DNA from: Candidatus Velthaea sp.
GTDB lineage: Bacteria > Vulcanimicrobiota > Vulcanimicrobiia > Vulcanimicrobiales > Vulcanimicrobiaceae
Length of the DNA: 15,603 nt
Assembly: GCA_050012475.1 (NCBI GenBank)
Contig: JBEKHC010000110.1
Coordinates: forward strand, 1 to 15,603
Reading direction: 5' to 3'
A program made the position numbers and the translations under genes. Below, piece after piece: positions 322 through 15,508 of the stretch (position 1 is the stretch's first letter; each line of letters opens with the position of its first letter). The notes beneath the pieces were generated by a model, which saw only the letters and a list, made by a program, of their open reading frames with translations, was not told the DNA's origin and searched no databases.

Positions 322-1260
322 ATGCGTTATTTCGTGACCGGATGCGCCGGATTCGTTGGGAGCACGTTTGCGGACCGGCTGTTGGGCGCCGGTCATTCCG
401 TTGTCGGGTTCGACAACTTCTCGACCGGTCGCGAAGCGTTCATCGCCGCTGCGCTGCGACATCCGAACTTCATGCTGCACCGGGGCGATTTGCTCGACGC
501 CGCGGCCGTGCGCGCCGCGGCTGCCGGCTGCGATACGATCGTGCATCTCGCGGCCAACGCAGACGTGCGGTTCGGAGCCGACCATCCGCTGCGCGATTTC
601 GAACAGAACGTCGGCGCGACGATGAACGTGCTCGAAGCCGCGCGGCTCAACGGGATCGCAACGATCGCGTTCTCATCCACGGGTTCGATCTACGGCGAGG
701 CCACGATCGTGCCGACGCCCGAAGACGCACCGATTCCCATTCAGACGTCGTTGTACGGCGCTTCGAAAATTGCCGCCGAAGGCTTCATCGAAGCGTACGC
801 CGAGGCGTTCGATCTGCGCGCGTTTATTTTCCGGTTCGTCTCGCTGCTGGGTGAGCGCTATACCCACGGCCACGTGCTGGATTTCTGCCGCCAGCTGCGC
901 GAACATCCGCGCGAACTCCACGTGCTGGGCGACGGCACCCAACGCAAGTCGTACCTATACGTCGGCGATTGCATCGACGCGATGCTGCTGGCCCTGGACC
1001 GTCCGGCGGGACGCGTGAACGTTTACAATCTGGGGTCGGACGGATATTGCCAAATCCACGACTCCGTGGCGTGGATCTCCGAACGGCTTGGCGTGCAGCC
1101 GCGCATCACGTACGGCGGCGGTGATCGTGGGTGGATCGGCGACAATCCGTTCATTTTTCTCGACACGGCGCGGATTCGGGAGCTGGGCTGGAACCCGACG
1201 TTGAGCATCCGCGCCGCCGTCGAGCGCACCGTCGATTTCATCGTGAAAGAGCAGTTGTGA
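322..1260 (+). CDS. NAD-dependent epimerase/dehydratase (extended SDR), 312 aa
   Basis: VTGCAGFVG Rossmann motif, HLAA, FSSTGSIYG, catalytic YGASK. Start moved from 142 to ATG322 (MRYFVTG), with GGAGA at 304-308. Confidence 0.93.
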   Translation: MRYFVTGCAGFVGSTFADRLLGAGHSVVGFDNFSTGREAFIAAALRHPNFMLHRGDLLDAAAVRAAAAGCDTIVHLAANADVRFGADHPLRDFEQNVGATMNVLEAARLNGIATIAFSSTGSIYGEATIVPTPEDAPIPIQTSLYGASKIAAEGFIEAYAEAFDLRAFIFRFVSLLGERYTHGHVLDFCRQLREHPRELHVLGDGTQRKSYLYVGDCIDAMLLALDRPAGRVNVYNLGSDGYCQIHDSVAWISERLGVQPRITYGGGDRGWIGDNPFIFLDTARIRELGWNPTLSIRAAVERTVDFIVKEQL

Positions 1261-2567
1261 ACGTCGGCGTCGTCGGGCTTTGGCATTTGGGAACCGTTAC
1301 CGCGGCGTGCCTGGCCGCCGCCGGACATACGGTGGTCGCGGTCGATACGGAGGCGGTGGTCGCGCCCCTCGCCGCCGGCGAAGTGCCGGTCGCCGAACCC
1401 GGTTTGGCCGAACTCGTCGCCGCCCAACGCACGGCCGGGCGGCTGGAGTTCGGTTCGGATCTGACGGCGCTGCGGGTTTGTGAGTTGGTTTGGATCACGT
1501 ACGATACACCGATCGACGCGTTTGATTGCGCCGACGTCGAGTTCGTCGTCGAACGCATCCGCGCGGTCATCGATTGCCTCGACGAGAGCGCGACAATCGC
1601 GGTGTCGTCGCAGTTGCCGGTGGGTTCGGTGGCGCGGCTGGAGCGAATCGCTGCCGCCGCCGGCAAGAGCGGCTCGCTTACGTTCGCGTCGATTCCGGAG
1701 AATCTGCGGCTCGGATCGGCGATCGCCTATTTTCGAACACCCGACCGCATGATCGTCGGCGTCCGCGATACGCTCGCGCGCGAACGCATCGCGCGCATGC
1801 TGGCCCCGTTCGTGGCCGACGTCAAGTGGATGCGCACGGAGTCGGCCGAAATGACGAAGCACGCGCTCAACGGTTTCTTGGCCACGTCGGTCGCGTTCAT
1901 GAATGAGATCGGTGCGGTGTGCGAGCGCGTCGGCGCCGACGCGCGGGAAGTCGAGATCGGGCTCAAGAGCGACGTGCGGATCGGTCCCAAAGCGTATCTG
2001 CGCGCCGGGCAAGCGTTTGCCGGCGGAACGCTGGCGCGCGATCTGGCCTTCCTCGCCGCGATCGGCGAGCGGACCGGGGTGGGCGTTGAACAGCTTACGG
2101 CAACCCAGGCAAGCAACCAACGACACAAGGATTGGCTCGCGGCGACGGTCGGTGCGGCGCTCGCCGGCAGTGGTGAGCCGGCCGTCGCGCTTTTGGGGCT
2201 GGTCTACAAGCCAGGCACGGATACCCTGCGCGCGTCGACGGCCCTCGAGCTGGCGCGCCGTCTGCGTGAGGCCGGGGTCCGGGTGAGCGGATTCGATCCG
2301 GCCATCGCTGTAGGCCGGGGCGAGCTCGCCGGCATCGTCGATGTGGCCGTGAGCGCCGCGGCGGCGCTGCTCGACGCGGACGTGGCGGTCGTCGCCACGC
2401 CCTGGCCGGCCTTCCGCGACCTGCGCGCGGCGGACTTTGCCGGGATGCGCGGACGCACGCTCGTCGACCCCGACCGCTTCCTCGATCCGGCGCATGCGGC
2501 GTTGAGCGGACTGACCTACGTGGCCTTCGGTGTGGGCGCACCCGACGCGGCAGTTGCGCACTCGTGA
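1257..2567 (+). CDS. UDP-glucose/GDP-mannose dehydrogenase family protein with non-canonical active site (no catalytic Cys)
   Basis: GVVGLWHLG, EPGL, PENLRLG, SAEMTKHALNGFLA, DVRIG, AFAGGTLARD (family GxGGxCxPKD), LGLVYKPGTDTLRAS. GTG1257 overlaps the upstream TGA (GTGA). Confidence 0.9.
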   Translation: MNVGVVGLWHLGTVTAACLAAAGHTVVAVDTEAVVAPLAAGEVPVAEPGLAELVAAQRTAGRLEFGSDLTALRVCELVWITYDTPIDAFDCADVEFVVERIRAVIDCLDESATIAVSSQLPVGSVARLERIAAAAGKSGSLTFASIPENLRLGSAIAYFRTPDRMIVGVRDTLARERIARMLAPFVADVKWMRTESAEMTKHALNGFLATSVAFMNEIGAVCERVGADAREVEIGLKSDVRIGPKAYLRAGQAFAGGTLARDLAFLAAIGERTGVGVEQLTATQASNQRHKDWLAATVGAALAGSGEPAVALLGLVYKPGTDTLRASTALELARRLREAGVRVSGFDPAIAVGRGELAGIVDVAVSAAAALLDADVAVVATPWPAFRDLRAADFAGMRGRTLVDPDRFLDPAHAALSGLTYVAFGVGAPDAAVAHS

Positions 2568-3418
2568 TACTCAAGGGGAAGCGCGCACTGGTAACGGGCG
2601 CTAATCAGGGCCTGGGTTTTGCAATCGCCGAGGCCTACACAGCAGCCGGGGCGGCGGTCGCGATATGCGCCCGGGATCGCGCCTTGCTCGAGGCGGCCGC
2701 GGAGTCGCTGCGCCGCGCGCACCCGGACGCCGATGTCTTCGCCCAGCCGTGCGACGTCGGCGATCGGGCCGATGTCGATCGGCTCTTCGCGGCGTTGGAT
2801 GCGCGGCAGGCCGGTCTGGACGTCGTGGTCTGTAACGCCGGGGTTTACGGGCCCAAGGGCGCCATCGAAACCGTCGACTGGGATGCGTGGGTCGACGCGC
2901 TGCGCATCAACTTGATCGGCACCGCGTACTGCGCGCGGCGCGCGCTGGCGTCGCTCGCGGGTTCGGCGCGAGGAAAAATCGTGATCATCTCCGGCGGCGG
3001 GGCGACCAAACCGCTGCCGAACCTGAGCTCCTATGCGGCCTCGAAGGCCGGGATCGTCCGCTTCGGCGAGACGCTGGCGGAGGAAACGCGCGGGCGCGGC
3101 ATCGACGTCAACATGATCGCGCCGGGGGCACTCAACACGCGCCTGCTCGACGAGATCCTCGCCGCCGGTCCGCAGACCGTCGGCGAAGCCTTTTTCGCCG
3201 CGTCGCTCAAACAACAGCAGACGGGCGGGACGCCGCTGGACGTCGCCGCTCGGCTGGCGGTTTTCCTAGCCTCGGGAGCCGCCGACGGGATCAGCGGCAA
3301 ACTCATCAGCGCCCCGTGGGATCCATGGGAGCGCTTCCGCGCCGACGATGAACGCTTGAACGGCGACGTCTATACCCTGCGGCGGATCGTTCCCGAAGAG
3401 CGGGGCTGGTCGTGGTAG
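2564..3418 (+). CDS. Classical short-chain dehydrogenase/reductase (probable keto-sugar reductase)
   Basis: TGANQGLG, CDV, CNAG, YAASK, IAPG motifs; GTGA overlap with the upstream gene. Confidence 0.9.
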   Translation: MILKGKRALVTGANQGLGFAIAEAYTAAGAAVAICARDRALLEAAAESLRRAHPDADVFAQPCDVGDRADVDRLFAALDARQAGLDVVVCNAGVYGPKGAIETVDWDAWVDALRINLIGTAYCARRALASLAGSARGKIVIISGGGATKPLPNLSSYAASKAGIVRFGETLAEETRGRGIDVNMIAPGALNTRLLDEILAAGPQTVGEAFFAASLKQQQTGGTPLDVAARLAVFLASGAADGISGKLISAPWDPWERFRADDERLNGDVYTLRRIVPEERGWSW

Positions 3419-4401
3419 CGAGCGGCGTTGCCATCGTCGGCTGCGGCTTGATCGGGCACAAACGCGCGAACGTGCTGCCCGCCGGAATGCTGCGCGTGGT
3501 GTGCGACATCGACCGGGCGCGAATGCGCGGGCTGGCGGAGCGCTACCCCGGCGTCGAAACCGAGCCGGACTGGCAGGCGGCGATCGAGCGCCCCGACGTG
3601 ACGATCGCGATCGTGGCCACCACCCACGATCAGCTGGCACCGATCACCGCGTTTGCCGCCGCGGCCGGAAAACACGTGCTGGTCGAGAAGCCCGCTGCCC
3701 GCCGGGCCGCCGAGCTCGACGCGGTCGATGCAGCGACCGCCAAAACCGGGGCGCTCGTGCGCGTCGGCTTCAACCACCGCTATCACCGCGCGCTGCGCAA
3801 GGCGCGCGAGATCGCCGATTCGGGCGTGCTCGGCCCGCTCACGCACGTCCGCGCGCGCTACGGGCACGGCGGCCGGCCCGGTTACGATCGTGAATGGCGT
3901 GCGCAACCGGTAATTTCGGGCGGCGGTGAAGCGATCGATCAAGGGATGCACGTGATCGACTTGGCGCGCTGGTTCCTGGGTGACTTCACCGACGTGCACG
4001 GATTCATGCCGCGCTATTTTTGGGACATGCCGGTGGAAGACAACGCGTTTTTTCTGTTGCGCACGGCCGCGGGGCAAGTCGCGCAGCTGCACACCTCGTG
4101 GACGGAATGGAAGAACTTGTTTTCGTTCGAGCTCTTTGGCCGGATGGGAAAACTGGACGTCCGCGGTCTGGGCGGCAGCTACGGGGTTGAAACGTTGGCC
4201 TACTATGCGATGTCGCCCGAGATGGGTCCGCCCGAGACCACTATTTACGAGTACCCGATGGGCGATGATTCGTGGAACGCCGAATTCACGGCGTTTCTCG
4301 ACGACGTCGCCGCGCACCGCCGGCCCGATCCGACGGTCGCCGATGCGCGCGCGGCGCTGGCGGTGATCGAGCGCATCTACGCGGCCGAGGCGGCGCGATG
4401 A
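3412..4401 (+). CDS. Gfo/Idh/MocA family oxidoreductase
   Basis: IVGCGLIG, GKHVLVEKP, VGFNHRY, GGGEAIDQGMHVID; 7-nt overlap with the SDR; stop forms ATGA with the next gene. Confidence 0.92.
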   Translation: MVASGVAIVGCGLIGHKRANVLPAGMLRVVCDIDRARMRGLAERYPGVETEPDWQAAIERPDVTIAIVATTHDQLAPITAFAAAAGKHVLVEKPAARRAAELDAVDAATAKTGALVRVGFNHRYHRALRKAREIADSGVLGPLTHVRARYGHGGRPGYDREWRAQPVISGGGEAIDQGMHVIDLARWFLGDFTDVHGFMPRYFWDMPVEDNAFFLLRTAAGQVAQLHTSWTEWKNLFSFELFGRMGKLDVRGLGGSYGVETLAYYAMSPEMGPPETTIYEYPMGDDSWNAEFTAFLDDVAAHRRPDPTVADARAALAVIERIYAAEAAR

Positions 4402-5378
4402 TCATCACGCGCAGCCCGCTGCGGATCTCGCTGGGCGGCGGCGGCACCGATTTGCCGTCGTACTATCGCGAGCACGGCGGTTTTCTGGTCGCGGCGGCGA
4501 TCGACCGCTACGTCTATATCACGCTGCACGAGACGTTCGTCGAAGAATGCATCATCAAGTACTCGCAGCTCGAACGCGTGTCGTCGGTCGATGCGATTGC
4601 GCATCCGCTCATTCGTGAAGCGCTGCGGATGACCGGCACGCCGACGGCGTACTTGGAGATCGCGAGCATGTCGGACATCCCGGCCGGAACGGGGTTGGGC
4701 TCGTCGGGCAGTTTCACGACGGCGCTGTTGCACGCACTGCACGTGATGAATCGCGAGATCGTCACGAAGGATCGGCTCGCCGAAGAAGCCTGCCGCATCG
4801 AGATCGACGTGCTGCGCGAAAGCGTGGGCAAGCAAGACCAGTATATCGCGGCGTATGGCGGGATCACGTCTTTTGCGTTCGAACGCGACGATAGCGTGCG
4901 CGTGGCGCCGGTCCGGCTCGATCCCGAGACGCGCTCGAACTTGCAAGACAATCTCGTGTTGTTCTTCACCGGGTACACGCGCTCGGCCTCAAAGATTCTC
5001 AGCGATCAGGATCAGCGCACCAAGAGCGGCGACCGCTCGACGATCGACGGCCTGCACTACGTCAAGGAGCTCGGCCGCGCCAGCCACGCCGCGCTCGAGT
5101 CCGGCGACCTGCGCCGTTTCGCCGAGCTGATGCACGAACATTGGGAGTACAAACGCAAGCGGCCTAATGGCATGTCAAATCCGCAGATCGACGCGTGGTA
5201 TGAAACCGGGCGCCGGCACGGCGCACTCGGCGGGAAAATCATCGGCGCGGGCGGCGGCGGATTTCTGATGTTTTACACCGAGGAAAAATCGCGCTTGCGG
5301 CGCGGTATGGTCGAAGCCGGACTTAAAGAGGTGCGTTTGAATTTCGACGTTCAGGGCACGACCGTCGTCACATTGTAG
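4398..5378 (+). CDS. hddA: GHMP sugar kinase, D-glycero-alpha-D-manno-heptose-7-phosphate kinase (HddA)-like
   Basis: PLRISLGGGGTD, PAGTGLGSSGS ATP motif, GKQDQY, GGKIIGAGGGGF; start at ATG4398 (ATGA overlap). Family is clear, exact substrate is inferred. Confidence 0.88.
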   Translation: MIITRSPLRISLGGGGTDLPSYYREHGGFLVAAAIDRYVYITLHETFVEECIIKYSQLERVSSVDAIAHPLIREALRMTGTPTAYLEIASMSDIPAGTGLGSSGSFTTALLHALHVMNREIVTKDRLAEEACRIEIDVLRESVGKQDQYIAAYGGITSFAFERDDSVRVAPVRLDPETRSNLQDNLVLFFTGYTRSASKILSDQDQRTKSGDRSTIDGLHYVKELGRASHAALESGDLRRFAELMHEHWEYKRKRPNGMSNPQIDAWYETGRRHGALGGKIIGAGGGGFLMFYTEEKSRLRRGMVEAGLKEVRLNFDVQGTTVVTL

Positions 5379-5385
5379 GAGTTTG

Positions 5386-6084
5386 ATGCTCCCGTTCGCG
5401 ATTTTATGCGGCGGGCTGGGCACGCGGATGCGCCCGGCAACGTTGACGCTGCCCAAGCCCATGCTCGAGGTTGCGGGCGAGCCGTTCCTCGGGCATTTGC
5501 TGCGCTATGTCGCCGCGCAGGGAGGTAGCCGAGCGGTGCTCTGTATCGGCTACCGAGGCGAACTCATCCGCGCGTTCGCGGGCGACGGTTCGCGCTTCGG
5601 ACTCGAGCTTGCTTATGTCGAGGACGGCGCGACGCCGCTGGGGACGGCCGGCGCGGTGCGGGCTGCGCTCGCGCAACTGGGCGACGCCTTTTTCGTCCTT
5701 TTCGGCGACGCTTTTTTGCCGATCGACTATCGCGCGGTCGAGCAGTGCTTCCTTGCCGCGGGGACGGAGGGTCTCATGACGGTCTATGCCGATCCGAACT
5801 CGTACCATCCGGCGAACGTCGAGGTCGCAGGGGGACGGGTGGTGGCGTACGACAAACTGCACCCGACACAACGCATGACGTTTATTGACTACGGGTTGAG
5901 CGCGTTTCGCGCATCCGCGTTTACCGGCATCGAACCCGGGACGGCAGCGGACTTGAGTGCGGTGAACCAGCGCCTCATCGCAGCGGGCCAACTGAGCGCA
6001 TTCCAGGCGCAGCAGCGCTTTTACGAGATCGGTTCGCCCGAAGGCATGGCGCTCACGACCGCATACCTGCGCGAGGAAAAATAA
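5386..6084 (+). CDS. hddC: Sugar-1-phosphate nucleotidyltransferase, HddC-like (probably guanylyltransferase)
   Basis: LCGGLGTRM...LPKPM signature, PLGTAGA, LFGD, EIGSPE; AGGAG at 5377-5381 before ATG5386; follows an HddA-like kinase. Confidence 0.82.
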   Translation: MLPFAILCGGLGTRMRPATLTLPKPMLEVAGEPFLGHLLRYVAAQGGSRAVLCIGYRGELIRAFAGDGSRFGLELAYVEDGATPLGTAGAVRAALAQLGDAFFVLFGDAFLPIDYRAVEQCFLAAGTEGLMTVYADPNSYHPANVEVAGGRVVAYDKLHPTQRMTFIDYGLSAFRASAFTGIEPGTAADLSAVNQRLIAAGQLSAFQAQQRFYEIGSPEGMALTTAYLREEK

Positions 6085-6087
6085 CGA

Positions 6088-6705
6088 GTGAACACCGTCG
6101 CACCGCAAACATTCTCGGCGTCTTTTCTGGCCGAAGCGCAAGAGGTGATCGGGAAGATCAACGTCGACGACGTCGAGCGCATGGTGCAGATCCTCGCGCA
6201 GACCAAAGCCCGCGGCGGTCGCCTGTTCGTGCTGGGCGTCGGCGGCAGCGCCGGAAACGCCTCGCACGCGGTGAACGATTTCCGCAAAATCGTCGGGCTC
6301 GAAGCATACGCGCCGACCGATAACGTATCGGAATTGACGGCGCGGACCAACGATGACGGTTGGGCCAGCGTCTTCGTCGAGTGGCTCAAAACCAGCCGGC
6401 TCCGGAGCAGCGACACGATCTGCGTCTTTTCCGTCGGCGGCGGAAACCTCGAGAAGATGGTCAGCCCGAATTTGGTGCACGCGCTGCGCTATGCCAAGGA
6501 GGTCGGCGCGTCGATCGTCGGCGTGGTCGGGCGCGACGGCGGCTTCACCGCGACCGTGGCCGATGCGTGCGTGATCATCCCGACGGTGAACGCCGATCAC
6601 ATCACGCCGCATTCCGAAGCATTCCAAGCAGTCGTCTGGCACCTGATCGTCTCGCATCCGGCGCTCAAGGCGGTCCAAACCAAATGGGAGTCGGTCGCGA
6701 AGTGA
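6088..6705 (+). CDS. gmhA: SIS-domain sugar-phosphate isomerase, GmhA-like (divergent)
   Basis: GVGGSAGNASHAVNDF, LTARTNDDGW, FSVGGG..SPN, VGRDGG, C-terminal EAFQAVVWH; GAGG upstream of GTG6088. Confidence 0.8.
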   Translation: MNTVAPQTFSASFLAEAQEVIGKINVDDVERMVQILAQTKARGGRLFVLGVGGSAGNASHAVNDFRKIVGLEAYAPTDNVSELTARTNDDGWASVFVEWLKTSRLRSSDTICVFSVGGGNLEKMVSPNLVHALRYAKEVGASIVGVVGRDGGFTATVADACVIIPTVNADHITPHSEAFQAVVWHLIVSHPALKAVQTKWESVAK

Positions 6706-7241
6706 AGGCTGGCGGCGCGCGCGCCGTGTTCTTCGATCGCGACGGCGTCATCAACGCGGCGGTCCTGCGCGACCGCAAACCGCATCCGCCCGCGTCGGCC
6801 GACGAATTGGAGATCGATGCCGACGCCGCCGCGGTCGTCGCCGGTCTGCGCCGGCGCGATTTCGACGTCATCGTGTTCACCAATCAACCCGATGTCGCGC
6901 GCGGGACGACGCCGCGCACGGCGGTCGAGTCGATCCACACGACGATCGCGGAACGGACCGCGATCGATGCGTTTTACGTGTGCTACCACGACGATGCCGA
7001 CCGCTGCGCGTGCCGCAAGCCGTTGCCAGGGATGTTGCTGTCGGCAAGCGCGGAGCGCGGCATCGATCTGCAGCGCTCGTACGTCGTCGGCGACCGCTGG
7101 CGGGATATCGAAGCCGGAAAACGTGCGGGCTGCCGGACCGTCTGGATCGACCGCGGTTACGACGAACCCCCGGCCGATGCACCGGCGCGCCGGGTCACCA
7201 ATCTGCTCGAAGCCTACGAATGGATCATCCATGATTGCTAA
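6702..7241 (+). CDS. gmhB: HAD-IIIA sugar-bisphosphate phosphatase, GmhB-like
   Basis: FFDRDGVIN (DxD), TNQPD, zinc motif CYH...CACRKP, VGDRWRD; GTG6702 overlaps the SIS stop (GTGA). Confidence 0.9.
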   Translation: MKAGGARAVFFDRDGVINAAVLRDRKPHPPASADELEIDADAAAVVAGLRRRDFDVIVFTNQPDVARGTTPRTAVESIHTTIAERTAIDAFYVCYHDDADRCACRKPLPGMLLSASAERGIDLQRSYVVGDRWRDIEAGKRAGCRTVWIDRGYDEPPADAPARRVTNLLEAYEWIIHDC

Positions 7242-7980
7242 CGCGCTTCAGCCGGCGGCTGCAGCTTCTGCCCTCAAGCGGCTACGGGTCAAGCTCTTCG
7301 CCGACGGCGCGGATGTCGACGGGATGCGCGAGATGGCCGCCAACCCGGCCATTGCCGGATTCACGACCAACCCGACGTTGATGCGCAAAGCCGGCATCGG
7401 CGACTACGCGAGGTTTGCGCGCGACGTGCTCGCCCTGGTTCCGGATCGCCCGATTTCGTTTGAGGTGTTTTCGGACGATTTCAAAGAGATGGAGCGCCAA
7501 GCGCGGACCATCAACGCGTGGGGAACGAACGTTTACGTGAAGATCCCCGTCACGAACACGAAAGGCGAGAGCGCGGCCAAGCTCGTGCATGCTCTCAGCG
7601 CCGACGGGATCAAGCTCAACGTCACCGCGCTGACGACGCTCGAGCAGGTGGGGGTCGTCACCGATGCGTTAGCGGCGGAAACGCGGGGCTATGTGTCAAT
7701 CTTTGCCGGGCGCATCGCCGATACGGGCCGCGACCCGATGCCGATCATGAAGGCGGCGGTCGCGCGGCTTGCCCGCAAACCGCTGCTCGAATTGATCTGG
7801 GCGAGCCCGCGCGAGGTGCTCAACGTTTTCCAGGCCGACGAAGTCGGCTGCCAGATCATCACCGCGACCAACGATATCCTCAAGAAACTCGCCATTGTGG
7901 GCAAAGATCTTACGCAGTACTCGCTCGAGACGGTAAAGATGTTCCACGACGACGCACGGGCAGCAGGCTACCGGATATAG
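7231..7980 (+). CDS. tal: Transaldolase (short MipB/TalC-type), 249 aa
   Basis: FADGAD, GFTTNPTL, ISFEV (acid/base Glu), VYVKIPV (Schiff-base Lys), NVTA, SIFAGRIAD, WASPR. Glu plus Phe indicates transaldolase rather than fructose-6-phosphate aldolase (Gln/Tyr). ATG7231 overlaps the gmhB end by 11 nt. Confidence 0.92.
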   Translation: MIANALQPAAAASALKRLRVKLFADGADVDGMREMAANPAIAGFTTNPTLMRKAGIGDYARFARDVLALVPDRPISFEVFSDDFKEMERQARTINAWGTNVYVKIPVTNTKGESAAKLVHALSADGIKLNVTALTTLEQVGVVTDALAAETRGYVSIFAGRIADTGRDPMPIMKAAVARLARKPLLELIWASPREVLNVFQADEVGCQIITATNDILKKLAIVGKDLTQYSLETVKMFHDDARAAGYRI

Positions 7981-7998
7981 GGAGCATCCCTATGCCGG
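7971..7998. terminator. Inverted repeat between convergent genes; possible bidirectional terminator or 3' stabilising hairpin
   Basis: ATAGGGA(7977-7983)-GCA-TCCCTAT(7987-7993) perfect 7-bp stem, extendable by CCGG/CCGG with one bulge and one G-U pair. No U-tract on either strand. Confidence 0.45.
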
Positions 7999-8889
7999 GA
8001 CGCGGGCGAAGGCCATGAGTTCGCCGATGTTGATCGAGATCGGTGCGTTGGTGATGTTGCTGGGGATCATGCGCGCCGCGGTGCGGTAGGCGCGTACGGG
8101 AAGCGGAAGGTACATTTCCACCTGTCCGGCGAGATAGTCGGCCGTGAGCGTTTTGCGCGCAACGGTGATGCGGACATCGGTGAGGCCGGCTCGGGTAAGT
8201 GCGAGCAGCAGCGAGCGGCGTGAGAAAAGCACGGTGTGCTGCATCGGCTGCAGCATCGGCCACTTCGAGCGCAACAGGTAACGCAAGAAATGACCGGTGT
8301 CCGGCGTCGTCACGACGACGGTCGCTTCGGGTGCCGCGACCGAACGCAGACTCTGCAAGAATCCGATTGGGTCGAACGTGTGTTCGATGATATCGAATGC
8401 GGTGACCACCGCATAGGGCGCTTCGCCGCGGGCGGTGAGTGCGTTGACGTCACCCAACGTGAGCCGCTCGCGCAGGTGCGCCGGGGCACTGGCGATCGCT
8501 TCGGCCGACAACTCGAGCCCGTAGGCATCGAACCCGGCTTTGATCGCTTCGTCGATGAAGTAACCGCACGAGGCGCCGACGTCGAGCAGGCGTCCCATGC
8601 CGCTCGACGCCCGGATCTTCGCCGCCCGGCGTGAGAACGTCAGCGATTTGAGCGCTGCGGCGTTGACATAGTCAGCGTACACCCCGGACGCGTATTGGGC
8701 GTTGACGTAGTCGCGCATCTGCTCGAGCGTCGGCATCGGTGCCTGGAAAAGCGTCGCGCAGACCGGGCAATCATAATAGGTGGCCGGAGGCAGCGTGCAA
8801 GAGCGCCGGCCGGGGCCGCCGCAAATCGGACAGGCGGCCTGCGGAGCCGGGTCGTTAGGCCGTGACGTCAAGGCGCTGAGAGTCTGCAT
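7990..8889 (-). CDS. Class I SAM-dependent methyltransferase with N-terminal CxxC...CxxC zinc ribbon
   Basis: CPIC...CPVC, LLDVGASCGYF (motif I), GLELS, TAFDIIEHTFDP, VVTTP. Start uncertain; overlaps the upstream SDR by 35 nt. Confidence 0.88.
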   Translation of the reverse strand: MQTLSALTSRPNDPAPQAACPICGGPGRRSCTLPPATYYDCPVCATLFQAPMPTLEQMRDYVNAQYASGVYADYVNAAALKSLTFSRRAAKIRASSGMGRLLDVGASCGYFIDEAIKAGFDAYGLELSAEAIASAPAHLRERLTLGDVNALTARGEAPYAVVTAFDIIEHTFDPIGFLQSLRSVAAPEATVVVTTPDTGHFLRYLLRSKWPMLQPMQHTVLFSRRSLLLALTRAGLTDVRITVARKTLTADYLAGQVEMYLPLPVRAYRTAARMIPSNITNAPISINIGELMAFARVPA

Positions 8890-9682
8890 ACAGTCGTTCG
8901 ATTCTTTTCTCGAGAATGCGGTCGAAGAGCGGGTTCATCACGAAGGGTGCCGCCTCATAGAGCCACGCGGCGAGCCCCAGCGTCCGCGGGATGTAGCACA
9001 CCGGTCGACCGCGTTCGAGAGCGCGGATCGTCTCGGCAGCCACTCGCGTAATTGGAACGCTATTACGCGTTTCCGGGCCGCGCGTCCGCTCGACGAATGT
9101 CGGATGCGCGAAGAACGGCGTCTCAACGCGCCCCGGACAGATCGCCGTCACGCTGATACCGAATCGGCGCAATTCGTGCCGGAGCGCCGCCGCGAGGCCC
9201 ATCATCCCGTGCTTTGCGGCACAGTAGGTTGCGTTTGGCGTGATCGGGATCCGCCCGGCAATCGACGCCATGAAACCGATCGCGCCGCCGCGCCGCGCGA
9301 TCATCGGCGGCAGCAATAATTTTGTCAGCCCGACGTGCCCGGTAAAATTAACGGCGAGCAGCCGGTCGATTTCATCGGGGTCGCTTGCCTCGAAGGCACG
9401 ATAGACGCCGAAGCCCGCGTTGTTGATGAGCACGTCCGGAGCGCCCTCGCGCAGCACATCGGCGGCCAGCCGTTTCACGGCCTCACGGTCTCCGATGTCG
9501 GCAACGAAGCCGGAAACCGCTGCCGCATGCCGTTTGAGATCGGCCAACGCGGATTCGACGTTCTGCTCGTCGTGGCCGACGATGGCGACCTCATTTTCAC
9601 GGTGCAAAAGCGCCGCAGCAATTGCTTTCCCGATTCCGCTCGAACCGCCGGTAATCACAATTCGTTTGCCGCGCAGGATCAC
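8855..9682 (-). CDS. Classical short-chain dehydrogenase/reductase, 275 aa
   Basis: ITGGSSGIG, LINNAG, ASIAG, YCAAK, ICPG. Start moved to GTG9682 (VILRGKRIVITG) with GGATGGA upstream; this removes the overlap with the divergent GT2 gene. Confidence 0.9.
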   Translation of the reverse strand: MILRGKRIVITGGSSGIGKAIAAALLHRENEVAIVGHDEQNVESALADLKRHAAAVSGFVADIGDREAVKRLAADVLREGAPDVLINNAGFGVYRAFEASDPDEIDRLLAVNFTGHVGLTKLLLPPMIARRGGAIGFMASIAGRIPITPNATYCAAKHGMMGLAAALRHELRRFGISVTAICPGRVETPFFAHPTFVERTRGPETRNSVPITRVAAETIRALERGRPVCYIPRTLGLAAWLYEAAPFVMNPLFDRILEKRIERLYADSQRLDVTA

Positions 9683-9762: not shown

Positions 9763-11316
9763 TTGGATGCGAAAAGTGCGCAAGCTGCGATGCATCAGTC
9801 AGTAATCGAATCGTCGCCGAGAACGCTCATCCGCTGTCCGCTTTGCACTGCCGATCGTCTCGAATACGAGTTTAACCTCGCGACCGTTCCCGTTTCGCGG
9901 TGCGCCGACTGCTTGCTGCTGTTTCTCAATCCGCAGCCCGCGGCGCTGGAGGGCGCGCCGCCGGCGTGCGTCGATCTCACGGCGCTCGTCCGGCGCGACG
10001 TCGAACGTTTGCGCCAAGTTGCTCACCTCGGCAGCGCGGACGCCATCCTCGTGGTCGTCCCGTGGCTTCCCAGCGACGCCGCGGACGTCGGGGCGCGCGT
10101 CGTCACCGAGCAGCAAATGCTCGACGGCGCGGTGGCGCACGAGACGTTCGACGCCTGCGCGTTCGTTCACGCACTGGAACGCTCGCGCGATCCGCAATCG
10201 GCGCTGGCCGTCGGGCTCGAACGGTTGCGCCCGGGCGGCTCGGTTTCGGCCACGTGCACGTCGATCGACAGCCCGGCGGCGCGCTACTTCGGTGCCCGCT
10301 GGTGGGGCTTCGAGCCGTCGACGCGCTTCTATTTCGGCGTCAACACGCTGCAGAATTGTATGGCCCGCGCCGGCTTGGGCGAGTTCATGGTCTTTCACGA
10401 GAACGATCCCGAACGGCTGCATCCCAGCGCGCCGCTCATCGTCCGCGGGCTCAAGATACTGGGCCTGCGGCGCGCCGCAGCGCACCACCGGTATGGGAAA
10501 CGGCTTTTGGCGAGCGAACTGACGATCGTCGGCAAGCGCGTCGACCGGAACGCCTCTCCCAAGTTGTCCGTCATCGTTCCGGTGTATAACGAGCGCCGAA
10601 CGTTCAACGAACTCATCGAACGCGTTCTCGAGAAAACGATCGACGGTATCGATATCGAGATCATCATCGTCGAAAGCAATTCGACCGATGGCACGCGTGA
10701 CGACGTCATCGCCCTTGCCGATCATCCGCGCGTTCGGATCCTTCTGCAAGATCGCGCCCAAGGCAAGGGCAACGCGGTACGAGCGGGCCTCATGCACGCC
10801 AGCGGTGATATCGTGCTGTTTCAGGACGCCGATCTGGAATACGATGTCGGCGACTACGACCAGCTGGTGCGGCCGATTGCCGAATTCAAGCAAAATTTCG
10901 TCATTGGCTCGCGGCACAACAGCTTGGGCTCGAGCTGGAAAGTCCGCGACTTCAATAAAGCACCGATCCTTTCGCAGGTCTTCAATCTCGGCCATTTGAT
11001 CTTTCTGGGTCTGCTCAACTCCATGTATGGTCAGAAACTGGCCGATCCGTTCAGTATGTTCAAGGTTTTCCGGCGCGATTGCCTGGCGGGCCTGACCTTC
11101 GAGTGCAACCGCTTCGACTTCGATTTCGAGATCGTCATCAAATTGTTGCGCAAGGGCTACCGGCCGATTGAGATCCCGGTGAACTATCACTCGCGTTCGA
11201 TCAGCGAAGGCAAGAAAGTCACCATGATCCGCGATCCTCTTACGTGGATTCGTGCGCTGATCAAATACCGCAATACCGAGTTATATGCGTCGACGAATCT
11301 AACCCCGCGACCATGA
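9763..11316 (+). CDS. Fusion: zinc ribbon + degenerate methyltransferase-like domain + family 2 glycosyltransferase (DPM1-like, probable polyprenol-phosphate glycosyltransferase)
   Basis: GT2 from 10561: KLSVIVPVYNE, IIVESNSTDGT, GKGNAVRAG, FQDADLEYD (DxD), VIGSR, FDFDFEI. N-terminus CPLC...CADC and FDAC...LERSRDP...LRPGG. Start TTG9763 chosen for GAGGA at 9750-9754; ATG9790 is an alternative. Confidence 0.88.
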   Translation: MDAKSAQAAMHQSVIESSPRTLIRCPLCTADRLEYEFNLATVPVSRCADCLLLFLNPQPAALEGAPPACVDLTALVRRDVERLRQVAHLGSADAILVVVPWLPSDAADVGARVVTEQQMLDGAVAHETFDACAFVHALERSRDPQSALAVGLERLRPGGSVSATCTSIDSPAARYFGARWWGFEPSTRFYFGVNTLQNCMARAGLGEFMVFHENDPERLHPSAPLIVRGLKILGLRRAAAHHRYGKRLLASELTIVGKRVDRNASPKLSVIVPVYNERRTFNELIERVLEKTIDGIDIEIIIVESNSTDGTRDDVIALADHPRVRILLQDRAQGKGNAVRAGLMHASGDIVLFQDADLEYDVGDYDQLVRPIAEFKQNFVIGSRHNSLGSSWKVRDFNKAPILSQVFNLGHLIFLGLLNSMYGQKLADPFSMFKVFRRDCLAGLTFECNRFDFDFEIVIKLLRKGYRPIEIPVNYHSRSISEGKKVTMIRDPLTWIRALIKYRNTELYASTNLTPRP

Positions 11317-14288
11317 CGCTCCCCGTTCGGCTCGTGCGTTCCGCGAGCGGGGACGTTTTCGCTGCTGCTCTCGTGCTCGCTTTGCTGCTCAACGTCACGT
11401 TTTTCCCCTACCTTTGGTTGGGGAAGACATTGCTCAGCAGTGCCGCCGATGCGCCGAGCATCTACGATCGCGGAGCCGAACCGAGCCCAATGGTCGGCGA
11501 TCGTGCGCCCAAACTCATCGATTATGGTGCGCCCGCATGGCAGACAGAACCCGATTTCGCGCAGATTCATCGTCAGATTTTTGACGAAAAGCACCTGCCG
11601 CTTTGGAACCCCTCGATCGGTTACGGCCAGCCGTTAGCTGCCGACCTGCAGGCTCAGCCGTTTTTCCCGCTTTCGATCATCGCGTTCTGGCACCCATCGC
11701 CGGCAGCCTACAACTGGTGGTGCGTCGCGCGGCTCTTTGTCGCAGGGCTCGGCGCCTTCTGCTTTTTGCGGCTCTTTACGAGCTTTTGGCCTGGGCTCGC
11801 CGCCGGCATATCGATGATGTTCGCCGGTTACTATCTGCTCTATTACGATATTCCGCATCTAAGCGTAGAAACGCTCATCCCTTGGCTGTTCTACGTCAAC
11901 GAACGCATCGTCCGCGCGCCCCGGTTCTCGAATATCTGTTGGGCGGCCGGCGCAAACGTCTTGGTGTATTTGGGCGGAATGCCCGAGTCGGCGCTCCTTG
12001 CGCTCGGCTTCGCCTACCTCTACGCGGTGTATCGCGTGGTGACGTATCGAGCGCTTCGACCGCGCGCCCTGCGGGTAGGGGCAGGATTGGTGATCGAGGC
12101 CGTTGCGGGGGTCGGAGCATCGGCTTTCTTGCTGCTGCCGTTTATGGAATACGTGCGCGTCGCGCTGGATCAGCACCGGCCGGAAAATATCGGCGGGGTC
12201 ATTACCGGTGCGTTGCCCGACTACGGGAGTCTCTATCAGCTTCTCACGTACATCGTTCCGCTGATCTTCGGACCGCCATGGGGCAATGTTACAACGAACC
12301 TCAGCGGTTTTTCCGGGGCCCGCGGATTTTTCGGCATTGCGGGGTTGTTTCTCGCACTCGTCGCCATTTTCGGCGCCGCCGGCGATCGATCTCGCCGCCA
12401 ATATGCGTGGACCGGGCTGGTGCCGTTTTTTGCCGTCGCCGCTTGTTTTTTCGTCCTCAAGCGATTCGGTAGTCCGCTGGTCAACTGGGTCGGCTATCTG
12501 CCCGGCTTCTCACTCGTCCTATTCGTCAAGTATGAAGAACCGTTGCTGGCTTTTGCCGTAGCCGCAATGGTTGGATTCGGCTGCGCGCGCATTGCCGACG
12601 CCCGCCCGTCCGGAATCATTCGGTGGTGGTCGGCAGTCGTCGCTCTGGGGTGCTTGACTGCGACGTACGCGGTTGTCAGAGTGCTGGTGACGCCGGCGAT
12701 GGTTGGTCGCGGGTACACGATTTACAGTCTAATTTTTGCGATCGGCATCCTGGGTTTGATGGTGCTCGCGGCTGCAGCGCTGGGAACGGCGCGCTCCCGA
12801 CTGCGGCGAGCAGGCGCGTCGGTCGCCATCGTCGCGGTCGTCGCAATCGAAGCCATTGGCGACTTTCTCGTTCCGATGCATTATATGGTCGAACAACCGC
12901 CGTCGAGCGCTCGCAATCCGTATCGCGGCGCGCCGTTCGTAACCTACCTCGAGTCGGCAACGCGGCACGGTTACGAGCGCGTGCTCGGTCAAGACGATCT
13001 GCTCTATCCCAATTGGGCCGGGGCGTTCGCTCTTTACGACGTGCGGGATCTCGATGCAATGTACGAACAGCACTACCTGCCCTTCGTACGTGCTTTTCTG
13101 GCCGCAAATCCCGAGGATCCGCTCTTCAAGGACCGCTTCACGCAAGCGCCGCAATTGGAAACACCGCCGCAGCGTCGGTTTTTGGCGTTGTCATCGGTAC
13201 GCTATATCATCACGACGCAAGGCCTCGATCTGAGCGACTCCTTCTTCGGTCCGGCTCATTCCCAGAACGTCGCCAGCCTGCCGGCGGAAAAGAAGCCTTC
13301 GTTGGCGTTGAAGCGTTACGCGATCGCAGGCGTCGAGCGCGAAGGACTACTCGAGCACCCGCCCTTCGAGCGCCTACCGATGCACATCGTCATCCCGCGC
13401 GATGCAAAAGGTTTGAATTTCGGAATCGGCATGGATCCCGCCGTCTACGCGCCCGGTGTGAACATCTGCGGCGCAGGAGCCGAATTCCGCCTGGAGATCC
13501 GCGATGCCGGCGGCCGCATCACGCCGCTCTTTCGGCGTTACATCGATCCCAAGCACATCGTCGGCGAACGGCACTGGATCGACCAGACCGTTCCGGTCGC
13601 TCCCTGGGCCGGGCAACCCGTCGACATCCTGTTGTCCACAGCTCCGGGCCCGCAAGGCAACACCTGTGCCGATTGGGCTGTATGGGGCGGCGGCCGCTTC
13701 GTTCCGCAGCAGCCAGCAACGCGAGCGCACTCCGACTTCGAGCTGGTTTTTCGCGACGGCAAGGTGCTCGTCTATCGCTTTGACGGCGCGCTTCCCCGCA
13801 TCGGTATTTACGACAACGTCAAGACGACCGCGACGGCAGAGGCTGCTTTGGCGGCTCTAACCGCACCGGGCTTCAACGTGTCGAGCACGGTCGTCATCAC
13901 GCCCGACGGGCCGCAAGCCTCGCGTGAGGTCGCCGCCGTGGACGGTGCTCCCGCTGCCGTTCGCGCGGGAACATTGCTGGCGTACGACGCGCAAGATGTG
14001 AAAGCACGGGTCGTTCTTTCGCGCACGGGCGTCGTCGTTCTCAACGACACGTACTATCCGGGTTGGCGGGCTTACGTGGACGGCAAGCAGACAACGCTTT
14101 TGCGCGCCGATGCGCTCTTTCGAGGCGTCGTCGTCGGCCCGGGCGAGCATCTCGTCGAATTCAGATATGAACCCCAGTCGTTTGTGGCGGGGGTCGCGAT
14201 CACGTCGGCGACGATCGCTTCCGGAATCGCGGCAGCGTTCTTTTTGCGGATGCGCCGTCGCCGGGTGCCGCTTCAAAAAGCGGCGTGA
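11313..14288 (+). CDS. YfhO-family polytopic membrane protein (GT-C-type, lipid-phosphate-sugar-dependent glycosyltransferase), 991 aa
   Basis: LPLWNPSIGYGQP N-terminal loop, many hydrophobic segments in the first ~520 aa, C-terminal VLNDTYYPGWRAYVDG...FRGVVVGPGEHLVEFRYEP plus final TM helix; ATG11313 overlaps the GT2 stop (ATGA). Confidence 0.87.
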   Translation: MTLPVRLVRSASGDVFAAALVLALLLNVTFFPYLWLGKTLLSSAADAPSIYDRGAEPSPMVGDRAPKLIDYGAPAWQTEPDFAQIHRQIFDEKHLPLWNPSIGYGQPLAADLQAQPFFPLSIIAFWHPSPAAYNWWCVARLFVAGLGAFCFLRLFTSFWPGLAAGISMMFAGYYLLYYDIPHLSVETLIPWLFYVNERIVRAPRFSNICWAAGANVLVYLGGMPESALLALGFAYLYAVYRVVTYRALRPRALRVGAGLVIEAVAGVGASAFLLLPFMEYVRVALDQHRPENIGGVITGALPDYGSLYQLLTYIVPLIFGPPWGNVTTNLSGFSGARGFFGIAGLFLALVAIFGAAGDRSRRQYAWTGLVPFFAVAACFFVLKRFGSPLVNWVGYLPGFSLVLFVKYEEPLLAFAVAAMVGFGCARIADARPSGIIRWWSAVVALGCLTATYAVVRVLVTPAMVGRGYTIYSLIFAIGILGLMVLAAAALGTARSRLRRAGASVAIVAVVAIEAIGDFLVPMHYMVEQPPSSARNPYRGAPFVTYLESATRHGYERVLGQDDLLYPNWAGAFALYDVRDLDAMYEQHYLPFVRAFLAANPEDPLFKDRFTQAPQLETPPQRRFLALSSVRYIITTQGLDLSDSFFGPAHSQNVASLPAEKKPSLALKRYAIAGVEREGLLEHPPFERLPMHIVIPRDAKGLNFGIGMDPAVYAPGVNICGAGAEFRLEIRDAGGRITPLFRRYIDPKHIVGERHWIDQTVPVAPWAGQPVDILLSTAPGPQGNTCADWAVWGGGRFVPQQPATRAHSDFELVFRDGKVLVYRFDGALPRIGIYDNVKTTATAEAALAALTAPGFNVSSTVVITPDGPQASREVAAVDGAPAAVRAGTLLAYDAQDVKARVVLSRTGVVVLNDTYYPGWRAYVDGKQTTLLRADALFRGVVVGPGEHLVEFRYEPQSFVAGVAITSATIASGIAAAFFLRMRRRRVPLQKAA

Positions 14289-15508
14289 TTCCCGACGATA
14301 AGGTCGCATCCGGTGTCGGCGCGTCCGGTGAAGCGTTGGGAAGCGTCCCGAGCGCAGGCGAAGAGGCGGTACCTTCCCGGCGGCAGATCGCCGGCGCAGA
14401 GGTTCGCTCCGAACGTGATCTCTTTGGAGTCGGCGCTTGGGAAACACCAGGCCGGGATCGGGATCTCCTCGCCGGCTTCGGAGCGCGCGACGAGCGAGAC
14501 CGATCGGCTCACCGGACTCGAACGGCAGATCGTTCCGGTTATCGAAGTGACCGGCGCGCCTTCGCGCAAAACGAGCCGTTCGATCCGGGTTCCGTAGCGG
14601 TCGTAAATGACGGACGTTCCGCCGTCGACGAGTTTCCCGAGCCATTCCGGCGGCGAGGACACATGTTCGGCGCTCATGATGACGAGTCGTTGCGGCTCGC
14701 CGAGTGCGACCCAACGATCGTCACCCGTTAGACCGGCGATGCGCAAAGCGTGCAGGCCGGGTTCGGCAGCATACAGCCGGGTCCGGAGGTGAAAACCTGC
14801 GTCCCGCCTTCGATCAGTGGCTCCGAAGTCAGTTCGTTGGGCACCGGTCCAGCCCAAATTCCATGCTGAATCGTCAACTTGCGCTGCAACGCGAAGGAGC
14901 GGAGCCGACCGATCGTCGAGTGCCCATCCGCTTACTTCTAAGACGCCGTTCACCGGCACGTACGGAACCGCGTCCAGCGCACACGAATGCGCCGGACTCA
15001 TGACCGCAAAGTGCGGAAGCGATGACGCCGGCAACGTGTCGTGAACGAAAAAGCGGACGATCCCGGGCACGCGCGCGTGCGCGGCTCCGCGTCGCCCAAC
15101 GACTGCCCAAATCCTCAACTCGTGGCGCCCAACCGCGAGTGAACCCGTGTCGATCGTCGCGCAGAAGCCGCTGGACAAAGCGCGTGCGCCGTAGCTTTTC
15201 TCCACATCGGGCCGGTCTAAGCGCAACTTGATTCGAGCCCCCACGCGTTGACCATCGACGTCGACGAAAAGATCCCAAGGCAGCCGCTCGCAGTTGCGCT
15301 CAATTGCCCATCCGCTCACGGCGTAACGGCCGCCGCGCCGGACGTCGTGAGTCGAACCGTTCTGCGCATTGGATGCACGATCGCCGACAGCTCGTTGGCT
15401 GTCGATGCTTCCCAGCGTTTGCGCTGGCGACCTTCGTCGATGCGCAACGAAACGAATGATTGTCTGCCGGCAATTCAACAGCCCAAGCTTCGGTTTCGCG
15501 AGAAACAT
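14273..15508 (-). CDS. Hypothetical protein with about three repeated beta-sandwich (Ig-like) domains
   Basis: 411-aa ORF with recurring VSGWA...VD(G/D)...R(P/T)D...GF...GxHxLRI units and a weaker third unit ending DLPPGRYRLFACA. Overlaps the 3' end of the YfhO gene by 16 nt. Start uncertain. Confidence 0.7.
   Translation of the reverse strand: MFLAKPKLGLLNCRQTIIRFVAHRRRSPAQTLGSIDSQRAVGDRASNAQNGSTHDVRRGGRYAVSGWAIERNCERLPWDLFVDVDGQRVGARIKLRLDRPDVEKSYGARALSSGFCATIDTGSLAVGRHELRIWAVVGRRGAAHARVPGIVRFFVHDTLPASSLPHFAVMSPAHSCALDAVPYVPVNGVLEVSGWALDDRSAPLLRVAAQVDDSAWNLGWTGAQRTDFGATDRRRDAGFHLRTRLYAAEPGLHALRIAGLTGDDRWVALGEPQRLVIMSAEHVSSPPEWLGKLVDGGTSVIYDRYGTRIERLVLREGAPVTSITGTICRSSPVSRSVSLVARSEAGEEIPIPAWCFPSADSKEITFGANLCAGDLPPGRYRLFACARDASQRFTGRADTGCDLIVGNHAAF

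Follow-up and report, generated by a model that had tools for sequence, protein, structure and literature searches.

The nearest described relatives of the gene cassette analyzed here are the GDP-octose pathway of the lincosamide antibiotics and the GDP-glycero-manno-heptose pathway. In the former, for which Ccb gene functions are treated in passages of PMC4351081 and PMC12945683, the transaldolase LmbR forms an octulose from fructose 6-phosphate or sedoheptulose 7-phosphate and ribose 5-phosphate, according to part of PMC5854111. The heptose pathway shares with the cassette its four-step logic and its folds (isomerase, 1-kinase, phosphatase, and guanylyltransferase). The cassette comprises nine genes in a 15,603-nucleotide stretch of Candidatus Velthaea sp. 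(GenBank assembly GCA_050012475.1, contig JBEKHC010000110.1). This stretch, hereafter the window, is one entire contig (C110) of a 5.36-Mb genome that is 93.8% complete, and the gene content described is that between the contig's ends. We consider it moderately likely that the operon makes a GDP-octose, probably an 8-deoxy one, for envelope glycosylation. The reactions, chain length, nucleotide, acceptor, and roles of the Gfo/Idh/MocA (Gfo), UDP-glucose dehydrogenase (UGD)-like, and short-chain dehydrogenase/reductase (SDR) proteins are what we infer from sequence.

All nine open reading frames (ORFs) lie on the plus strand between 322 and 7980, intact and with 0 internal stops (sequence and Pfam scan), and neighbors are separated or overlapped by a measured -8 to +4 nt. 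Pfam assigns them to Epimerase (169 bits), all three UDPG_MGDP_dh domains, adh_short (154), GFO_IDH_MocA, the N- and C-terminal GHMP domains, NTP_transferase, SIS_2, a HAD hydrolase, and TAL_FSA (140). The transaldolase, whose ATG lies at 7231 (a small correction to the initial annotation), was alone in passing an NCBIfam equivalog (TIGR02134, 344.6 against a cut-off of 281.95). The intact frames, the Pfam families, and the recurrence of the same order elsewhere bear out the initial annotation's nine coupled genes. Its observation that aminotransferase and proline-branch genes are missing also stands: none was found among the 14 contig ORFs scanned with Pfam and NCBIfam, and an SDR (2564..3418) is present instead.

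Lincosamide references came from a kinase search over 401 Streptomyces-group genomes, which returned 14 matches. S. lincolnensis was not identified among these genomes, so two loci of celesticetin-type layout (L150 and L151) served as stand-ins, and the CcbD homologue of L150, the locus in which this was checked, scored 675 bits against solved CcbD. Four further Streptomyces loci (L153-L156) follow what we take to be the lmb gene order, K-L-M-N-Z-P-O-S-R; lincosamide assembly genes were not seen in them. A C7 control, L144, contains a protein matching PDB 4XCA/4XCB, presumably HygX of hygromycin B. Identity between the cassette and L150 ranges from 47% (K) through 39% (Z), 37% (L and M), 36% (P), 35% (O), and 32% (N) to 31% (R), and the window genes are the best matches in their genome of CcbM, CcbL, CcbZ, CcbP, CcbO, and CcbK, the kinase being the sole match there. 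The proposed kinship with the lincosamide sugar pathway thus goes beyond shared Pfam families, since it is upheld by these best-match tests and by active-site changes shared with CcbL.

Those changes make the UGD-like protein what appears to be the strongest link to the lincosamide pathway, and by its motifs and tree position it is an LmbL/CcbL orthologue. UDP-glucose and GDP-mannose 6-dehydrogenases carry a catalytic cysteine in an SCxPKD motif. In the window protein, SC[LF]PKD is replaced by GTLARD, and the GxGxxG dinucleotide loop (GxGYV) by GLWHLG; CcbL reads GLWHL and GSTLQRD, and the lmb-order proteins GDWHL and GATLHRD. Five signatures are common to all of these (GxWHL, SQ, ENLRLG, KHxxN, and TLxRD in place of SC[LF]PKD). 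The GxWHL and TLxRD pair was found in 21 cassette loci and 6/6 Ccb or lmb-order loci, against 0/27 canonical UGDs, and in 120/120 homologues among the matches listed (self included); two partial rows have neither mark, and four variant rows have Asn. In trees run on 17 and 15 rows, cassette and Ccb proteins split from seven canonical UGDs with 100/100 support, with and without long-branch rows; an earlier 45-row tree gave a long-branch warning and was unfinished in careful mode. Plain scores are misleading for this protein, as canonical UGDs (183-219 bits) exceed CcbL (179), and when the same query was run on the 401 Streptomyces genomes, every UGD in the 25 loci fetched was canonical and retained the Cys. 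The sole characterized member of the subfamily acts in an octose pathway, according to part of PMC12945683. Among the homologues, one (P0051) is a 741-residue epimerase/UGD-like fusion, which hints that the two act in sequence.

Several other enzymes also group with their Ccb counterparts. CcbK falls inside the clade of cassette phosphatases (97/87, 47% identity), which the lmb-order K proteins join at 87/80, and the phosphatase carries an NQPD motif. In quick trees, the nucleotidyltransferase lies with Ccb and one other Streptomyces protein (L147) on one side, apart from HddC-type proteins (Shimodaira-Hasegawa-like approximate likelihood ratio test, SH-aLRT, 97), with GTP as its predicted substrate, and the epimerase falls in the CcbM subfamily (SH-aLRT 100; 37% identity and 219 bits to CcbM). 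The closest structures to the epimerase are 3EHE (266 bits) and 8RDG (245 bits), the next epimerase group reaching at most 127. The likeness to the 8RDG (PhGal4E_1) subgroup is that of a single enzyme; 8RDG was characterized on GDP-hexoses and is described as an archaeal, GDP-preferring 4-epimerase (PMC12171764, in part), so proximity to it fits a GDP-sugar. The phylogenetic comparison proposed in the initial annotation therefore came out in favor of Ccb kinship for the UGD-like protein, phosphatase, nucleotidyltransferase, and epimerase, and went the other way for the transaldolase, which CcbR does not join.

The isomerase leans to the CcbN side. The two have in common an SVxGG loop and an insertion of 4-9 residues, neither of which is present in nine other isomerases in the alignment; GmhA-type enzymes read S(T/C/V/A/G)SG. 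The VG form of the loop is present in 76/76 cassette-type isomerases. In GmhA, the zinc ligands are H64, E68, Q175, and H183, according to part of PMC5705639. Phosphate binding in GmhA is presumably by three serines and one threonine, and the SVxGG loop may correspond to a shifted phosphate site. The window isomerase has His, Asp, Glu, and His at the zinc positions, which in GmhA-type enzymes are His, Glu, Gln, and His. The Asp/Glu swap was considered as a C8 marker and ruled out, since the same pair occurs in Streptomyces heptose-type isomerases.

The initial annotation treated LmbL- and LmbZ-like proteins as a dehydration pair acting as a unit, which the co-occurrence counts do not support. 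Gfo and SDR genes occur together in 43/87 loci, 23 with and 20 without the UGD-like gene, and all 23 loci with that gene hold both. In L076 and L078, the epimerase directly abuts the SDR with no UGD-like gene between. Because 20 of the 43 loci lack it, Gfo and SDR appear to form the fixed redox pair, with the LmbL-like gene an add-on. The Gfo protein scores 195 bits to CcbZ-type proteins and 91 to its best PDB match, and is a reciprocal best match by score. The SDR has a YxxxK motif and an Arg after beta-2, as read from its sequence. An Arg at this position indicates NADPH, and the protein is probably an NADPH-dependent ketoreductase. In four loci without a UGD-like gene (L009, L043:2214-3113, L055, and L060), a methyltransferase-looking gene of about 300 residues with a CxxC pair sits between epimerase and SDR.

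How common the cassette is could not be assessed in the initial annotation; it proves to be widespread across many phyla and viral contigs. A transaldolase search returned 80 loci in named records of many phyla; under strict thresholds, with many loci cut short, these held the isomerase in 69, kinase in 55, phosphatase in 53, nucleotidyltransferase in 48, SDR in 39, Gfo in 38, epimerase in 32, and UGD-like gene in 18. The exact nine-gene order was found in 9/87 loci, whose carriers include Chloroflexota, Acidobacteriota, Verrucomicrobia, Bradyrhizobium, and Rhizobium sp. CB3060, and in 8/80 metagenome loci; this recurrence of the same genes in the same order argues against a chance arrangement. 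In Lawsonia intracellularis, all nine genes are present in a different arrangement, together with a close glycosyltransferase family 2 (GT2) gene and an LPG_synthase_TM gene. Since anchoring on the transaldolase would be circular, loci were also anchored on the isomerase: the transaldolase was present in 53/59 metagenome loci with at least 1 kb downstream (21 shorter loci were dropped). In IMG/VR, 67 loci (L262-L328) have the cassette-type isomerase, of which 57 also have the TIGR02134 transaldolase and 52 the kinase; viral loci are often a compact isomerase-transaldolase-kinase-epimerase unit. A transaldolase is found in 6/6 Ccb or lmb-order loci and in 0/15 kinase-anchored heptose-type loci of 18-25 kb (6 HddA-like, 8 Streptomyces, and 1 Rhizobium, with the isomerase shown in 9). 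These are counts rather than a test, as kin are not independent. The window transaldolase has three other family matches in its genome, which suggests that it is a dedicated extra copy.

An octose is favored because the transaldolase is near-obligate in the cassette while heptose loci do without it, and because the cassette enzymes include orthologues of enzymes for which an octose is the known substrate. In the proposed pathway, the transaldolase would take three carbons from fructose 6-phosphate (or sedoheptulose 7-phosphate) and add them to ribose 5-phosphate to form octulose 8-phosphate, which the isomerase, kinase, phosphatase, and nucleotidyltransferase would convert to GDP-octose as in lincomycin synthesis. 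The LmbM-like epimerase may set the C4/C6 stereochemistry, and Gfo may introduce a keto group by oxidation. Where the Cys-less LmbL-like protein is encoded, it may assist in removing the C8 hydroxyl. The SDR may reduce the ketone at the point where the lincomycin route aminates. An 8-deoxy-octose would be the product here, and an epimerized, non-deoxy octose that of loci lacking the LmbL-like gene. Finally, the GT2 would load the sugar onto polyprenol phosphate, and the YfhO-like protein would deliver it to a polymer or protein at the surface.

Several observations weigh against this proposal, among them the type of the transaldolase, which the initial annotation matched to LmbR, and the weakly supported placement of the kinase, which it matched to LmbP. 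CcbR scores higher with TIGR00875 (143 bits) than with TIGR02134 (105), i.e. it is FSA/TalC-like, and it branches away from the window enzyme. Two signature positions that are Glu and Phe in ordinary transaldolases, as in the window enzyme, are Gln and Leu in CcbR. The best match of CcbR in the genome is a gene on contig C15 rather than the window transaldolase, which by these comparisons is not an LmbR orthologue. Cassette transaldolases also intermix with three non-cassette TIGR02134 enzymes, with no cassette-specific pocket change seen. Orthology to LmbR is not required, however, because a Trypanosoma transaldolase also yields octulose 8-phosphate (PMC5854111, in part). As for the kinase, basal support in its tree is 30, and CcbP (176 bits) is outscored by hygromycin-type kinases (215-219) and other Streptomyces kinases (211-223), with HddA-type kinases at 143-175. 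The isomerase groups with CcbN at 87/81, but another grouping is not rejected (approximately unbiased test, p-AU 0.124), and CcbN's best match in the genome is an isomerase on contig C167, by 4 bits. The Gfo tree has an open fork with two paralogues from its own genome, and the epimerase subfamily also holds L147, an archaeal protein, and a Rhizobium leguminosarum cluster (L157) that lacks the transaldolase. The 6,8-dehydration chemistry of LmbL and CcbZ, like the LmbM, LmbL, and LmbZ step sequence, is general background to the lincosamide route rather than a property read from this locus.

Alternatively, the product could be a modified NDP-heptose, with the transaldolase supplying sedoheptulose 7-phosphate and Gfo, SDR, and the Cys-less UGD-like protein oxidizing and re-reducing C6; the lincosamide enzymes would then have been recruited from a C7 cassette and lengthened their product to C8 by taking on a new transaldolase. 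Heptoses are common envelope sugars, and the canonical residues of the non-LmbR-type transaldolase, a kinase at least as close to heptose-type kinases, and an indecisive isomerase tree all suit this explanation, as does a transketolase domain in 8/10 cassette-bearing genomes, through which erythrose 4-phosphate could be available. Although we consider a heptose somewhat unlikely, it stays a reasonable alternative: the loss of the Cys from a UGD points only to a secondary alcohol at C6, and heptoses have one too. Against a heptose, no heptose-type control locus, hygromycin-type included, has the transaldolase, and the window-type isomerase rarely occurs without it; a mere supply boost should be optional. 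The octose role of the one characterized UGD-like relative points the same way, and all four heptose equivalogs score far under their cut-offs (GmhA 54/209, HddA 145/600, GmhB 65/250, and HddC 78/300 bits), the HddA cut-off being strict, as 0/301 sampled genomes reached it and HddA-like loci score 250-416. HddA-type loci also lie on separate branches for kinase, phosphatase, and transferase.

A further point against an octose is a variant in four loci (L010, L017, L019, and L021:7602-16284) that combines isomerase, phosphatase, transaldolase, epimerases, Gfo, and a UGD-like protein in which Asn replaces the Cys with a reversed CTP_transf and PfkB, HldE-like enzyme, which replaces the GHMP kinase and nucleotidyltransferase. 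It resembles, by described gene content, the lipopolysaccharide locus of Coxiella burnetii, of which we take cbu0675 to be a TIGR02134 transaldolase. That locus is described in part of PMC5843353 as holding a phosphoheptose isomerase (cbu0674), epimerases (cbu0676/0677), and a reversed-domain, HldE-like enzyme (cbu0678), and is also treated in parts of PMC13552124 and PMC5423948; the passages that bear on Coxiella sugars name virenose and dihydrohydroxystreptose and do not name an octose. This variant, the wide variation in tailoring content, and a transaldolase of a different family from LmbR, whose acceptor need not be ribose 5-phosphate, would also be compatible with another chain length or configuration: a nonose if the acceptor were an aldohexose 6-phosphate, an octose built on arabinose 5-phosphate, or a mixture of C8 and C7 across loci. 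We regard these as improbable, since the downstream enzymes are nearest to those of the octose pathway and no special-acceptor synthesis gene recurs in the loci.

The proposed surface destination is supported by the GT2 and YfhO-like neighbors and the missing aminotransferase. The GT2 best matches the dolichol-phosphate mannose (DPM) synthase structure 5MLZ, with ArnC also near, making it a candidate polyprenol-phosphate glycosyltransferase. YfhO-type proteins act as GT-C enzymes, and the YfhO-like protein is a candidate GT-C that would pass the sugar to a surface acceptor. Three-component lipid-carrier systems comprise a DPM-synthase/GtrB/ArnC-type GT2, a flippase, and a GT-C; here the GT2 and YfhO-like protein are present, and no flippase was found among the 14 contig ORFs, the rest of the genome lying outside that search. 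The missing flippase counts against this destination, as does the poor conservation of the YfhO-like partner (one partial match across loci). A sugar destined for a secreted small molecule or glycolipid could be argued from Streptomyces orthologues that serve antibiotics and lmb-order clusters of product not known, and from the position of the GT2 and YfhO-like genes outside the nine-gene transcription unit. Yet CcbD and CcbE have no match anywhere in the 93.8%-complete genome and CcbC and CcbF only weak generic ones, DegT-like aminotransferases occur in just 5/80 and 1/80 loci, GT2 genes recur beside the cassette, and its patchy distribution among relatives (transaldolase type in 7/61 genomes, own included) is that of surface-antigen islands; a secreted product thus seems very improbable.

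Compared with the lincosamide pathway, the cassette shares eight enzyme families and the L-type active-site signatures; it differs in transaldolase subfamily, in having an SDR for the aminotransferase, in gene order, in its GT2 and YfhO-like neighbors, and in its occurrence in many phyla, and an A-domain, CcbD, CcbE, and CcbF are absent from the 14 contig ORFs. It therefore resembles the lincosamide sugar pathway in its working but is not a member of it. More tentatively, and with less confidence than we place in the product itself, we propose that an eight-carbon aldose, which in the papers we found is a nucleotide sugar only in lincosamide antibiotics, is a common but undetected surface sugar in many bacterial phyla and some viruses, the work of a misannotated cassette; Streptomyces may have recruited the cassette, swapping the transaldolase and exchanging the reductase for an aminotransferase, and tailoring may be modular, with Gfo and SDR always, the LmbL-like protein optionally, and methyltransferases, so as to give a family of octoses. 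Full-text literature searches, outside which most subscription papers fell, found no paper describing the cassette or an octose in a surface glycan. The cassette is thus real and widespread, and it appears not to have been described before. Should the product be C8, then annotations of "heptose" or "UDP-glucose dehydrogenase" genes in many genomes conceal an unrecognized class of surface sugars, and the lincomycin sugar pathway gains a concrete origin; if it is a heptose, the cassette is still a widespread, undescribed tailoring route. Candidate loci can be recognized by GxWHL/TLxRD, the SVGGG isomerase loop, and a TIGR02134 gene adjoining the isomerase. The cassette may also be a source of soluble homologues for work on the unusual chemistry of LmbL and may give access to octose building blocks, and cultured, non-pathogenic carriers include Rhizobium sp. 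CB3060 and R. jaguaris.

Table 1. Features of the window, with the evidence for each assignment
Positions	Strand	Feature	Evidence
322..1260	+	Epimerase, extended SDR; LmbM/CcbM and archaeal GDP-sugar 4-epimerase subfamily	Pfam, CcbM match, PDB, tree
1257..2567	+	LmbL/CcbL-type UGD-like protein without catalytic Cys (GGTLARD), GLWHLG dinucleotide loop; optional tailoring gene	Motifs, tree
2564..3418	+	Classical SDR, probably a ketoreductase using NADPH; constant partner of Gfo; no lincosamide counterpart	Pfam adh_short, motif, co-occurrence
3412..4401	+	Gfo/Idh/MocA oxidoreductase, LmbZ/CcbZ-like	Scores, best match of CcbZ in genome
4398..5378	+	GHMP-family sugar-phosphate 1-kinase, HddA/LmbP family, own clade	Pfam, NCBIfam, scores, tree
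5386..6084	+	Nucleotidyltransferase, HddC/LmbO family, CcbO side of tree; GTP predicted	Pfam, NCBIfam, tree
6088..6705	+	SIS-fold ketose/aldose phosphate isomerase, SVxGG loop and insertion as in CcbN	Alignment, tree
6702..7241	+	HAD-IIIA bisphosphate phosphatase, CcbK nested in clade	47% to CcbK, tree 97/87, NQPD motif
7231..7980	+	Dedicated, TIGR02134-type small transaldolase with the Glu and Phe that mark true transaldolases	NCBIfam, alignment
7990..8889	-	Class I S-adenosylmethionine methyltransferase, N-terminal CxxC pair	Pfam Methyltransf_23; homologues in 7 cassette loci
8855..9682	-	Second SDR, ORF open to 9757	Pfam; close homologues in L099, L018, L201
9739..11316	+	Degenerate methyltransferase-like domain fused to DPM-synthase/ArnC-like GT2	Full-length homologues in 8 cassette loci
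11313..14288	+	YfhO-like multi-pass membrane protein, 991 aa	Pfam YfhO over cut-off; Atlas clusters YfhO; 10 hydrophobic segments (crude scan)

Of the neighboring genes (Table 1), the methyltransferase at 7990..8889 could possibly O-methylate the sugar. A 411-residue ORF on the minus strand (14273-15508), overlapping the end of the YfhO-like gene, matches nothing in Pfam or NCBIfam and lacks homologues among the loci searched, and no sigma-70 promoter match was found in positions 1-400 of the window. Elsewhere in the same genome, a second isomerase and two epimerase-family genes (C167:1-5487, L171) suggest a separate heptose-type locus. Some TIGR02134-type transaldolases are found apart from any cassette, next to genes for sugar uptake or catabolism (L085:14986-15696, L087, and L178). 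The absence of transketolase was considered as a pointer to ribose 5-phosphate as the acceptor and rejected, the domain being present in most of the cassette-bearing genomes, as noted above.

Two further groups of loci came to light. The lmb-order Streptomyces loci (L153:4887-12953, L154, L155, and L156, in genomes G593, G397, G426, and G328) contain the full amino-octose gene set; by eye, their neighbors include glycosyltransferase-like, ABC transporter, and nucleotidyltransferase-like genes, with no lincosamide assembly genes seen in 20 kb, and these loci may possibly encode a new amino-octose natural product. On Rhizobium leguminosarum plasmid pRL9b3 (L157:4263-15734), an isomerase, a GT2, a membrane protein, an LPG_synthase_TM gene, an LmbM-subfamily epimerase, a HAD fusion, and a kinase, with no transaldolase, form a related lipid-carrier sugar locus, and 57 Rhizobium plasmid records match the kinase.

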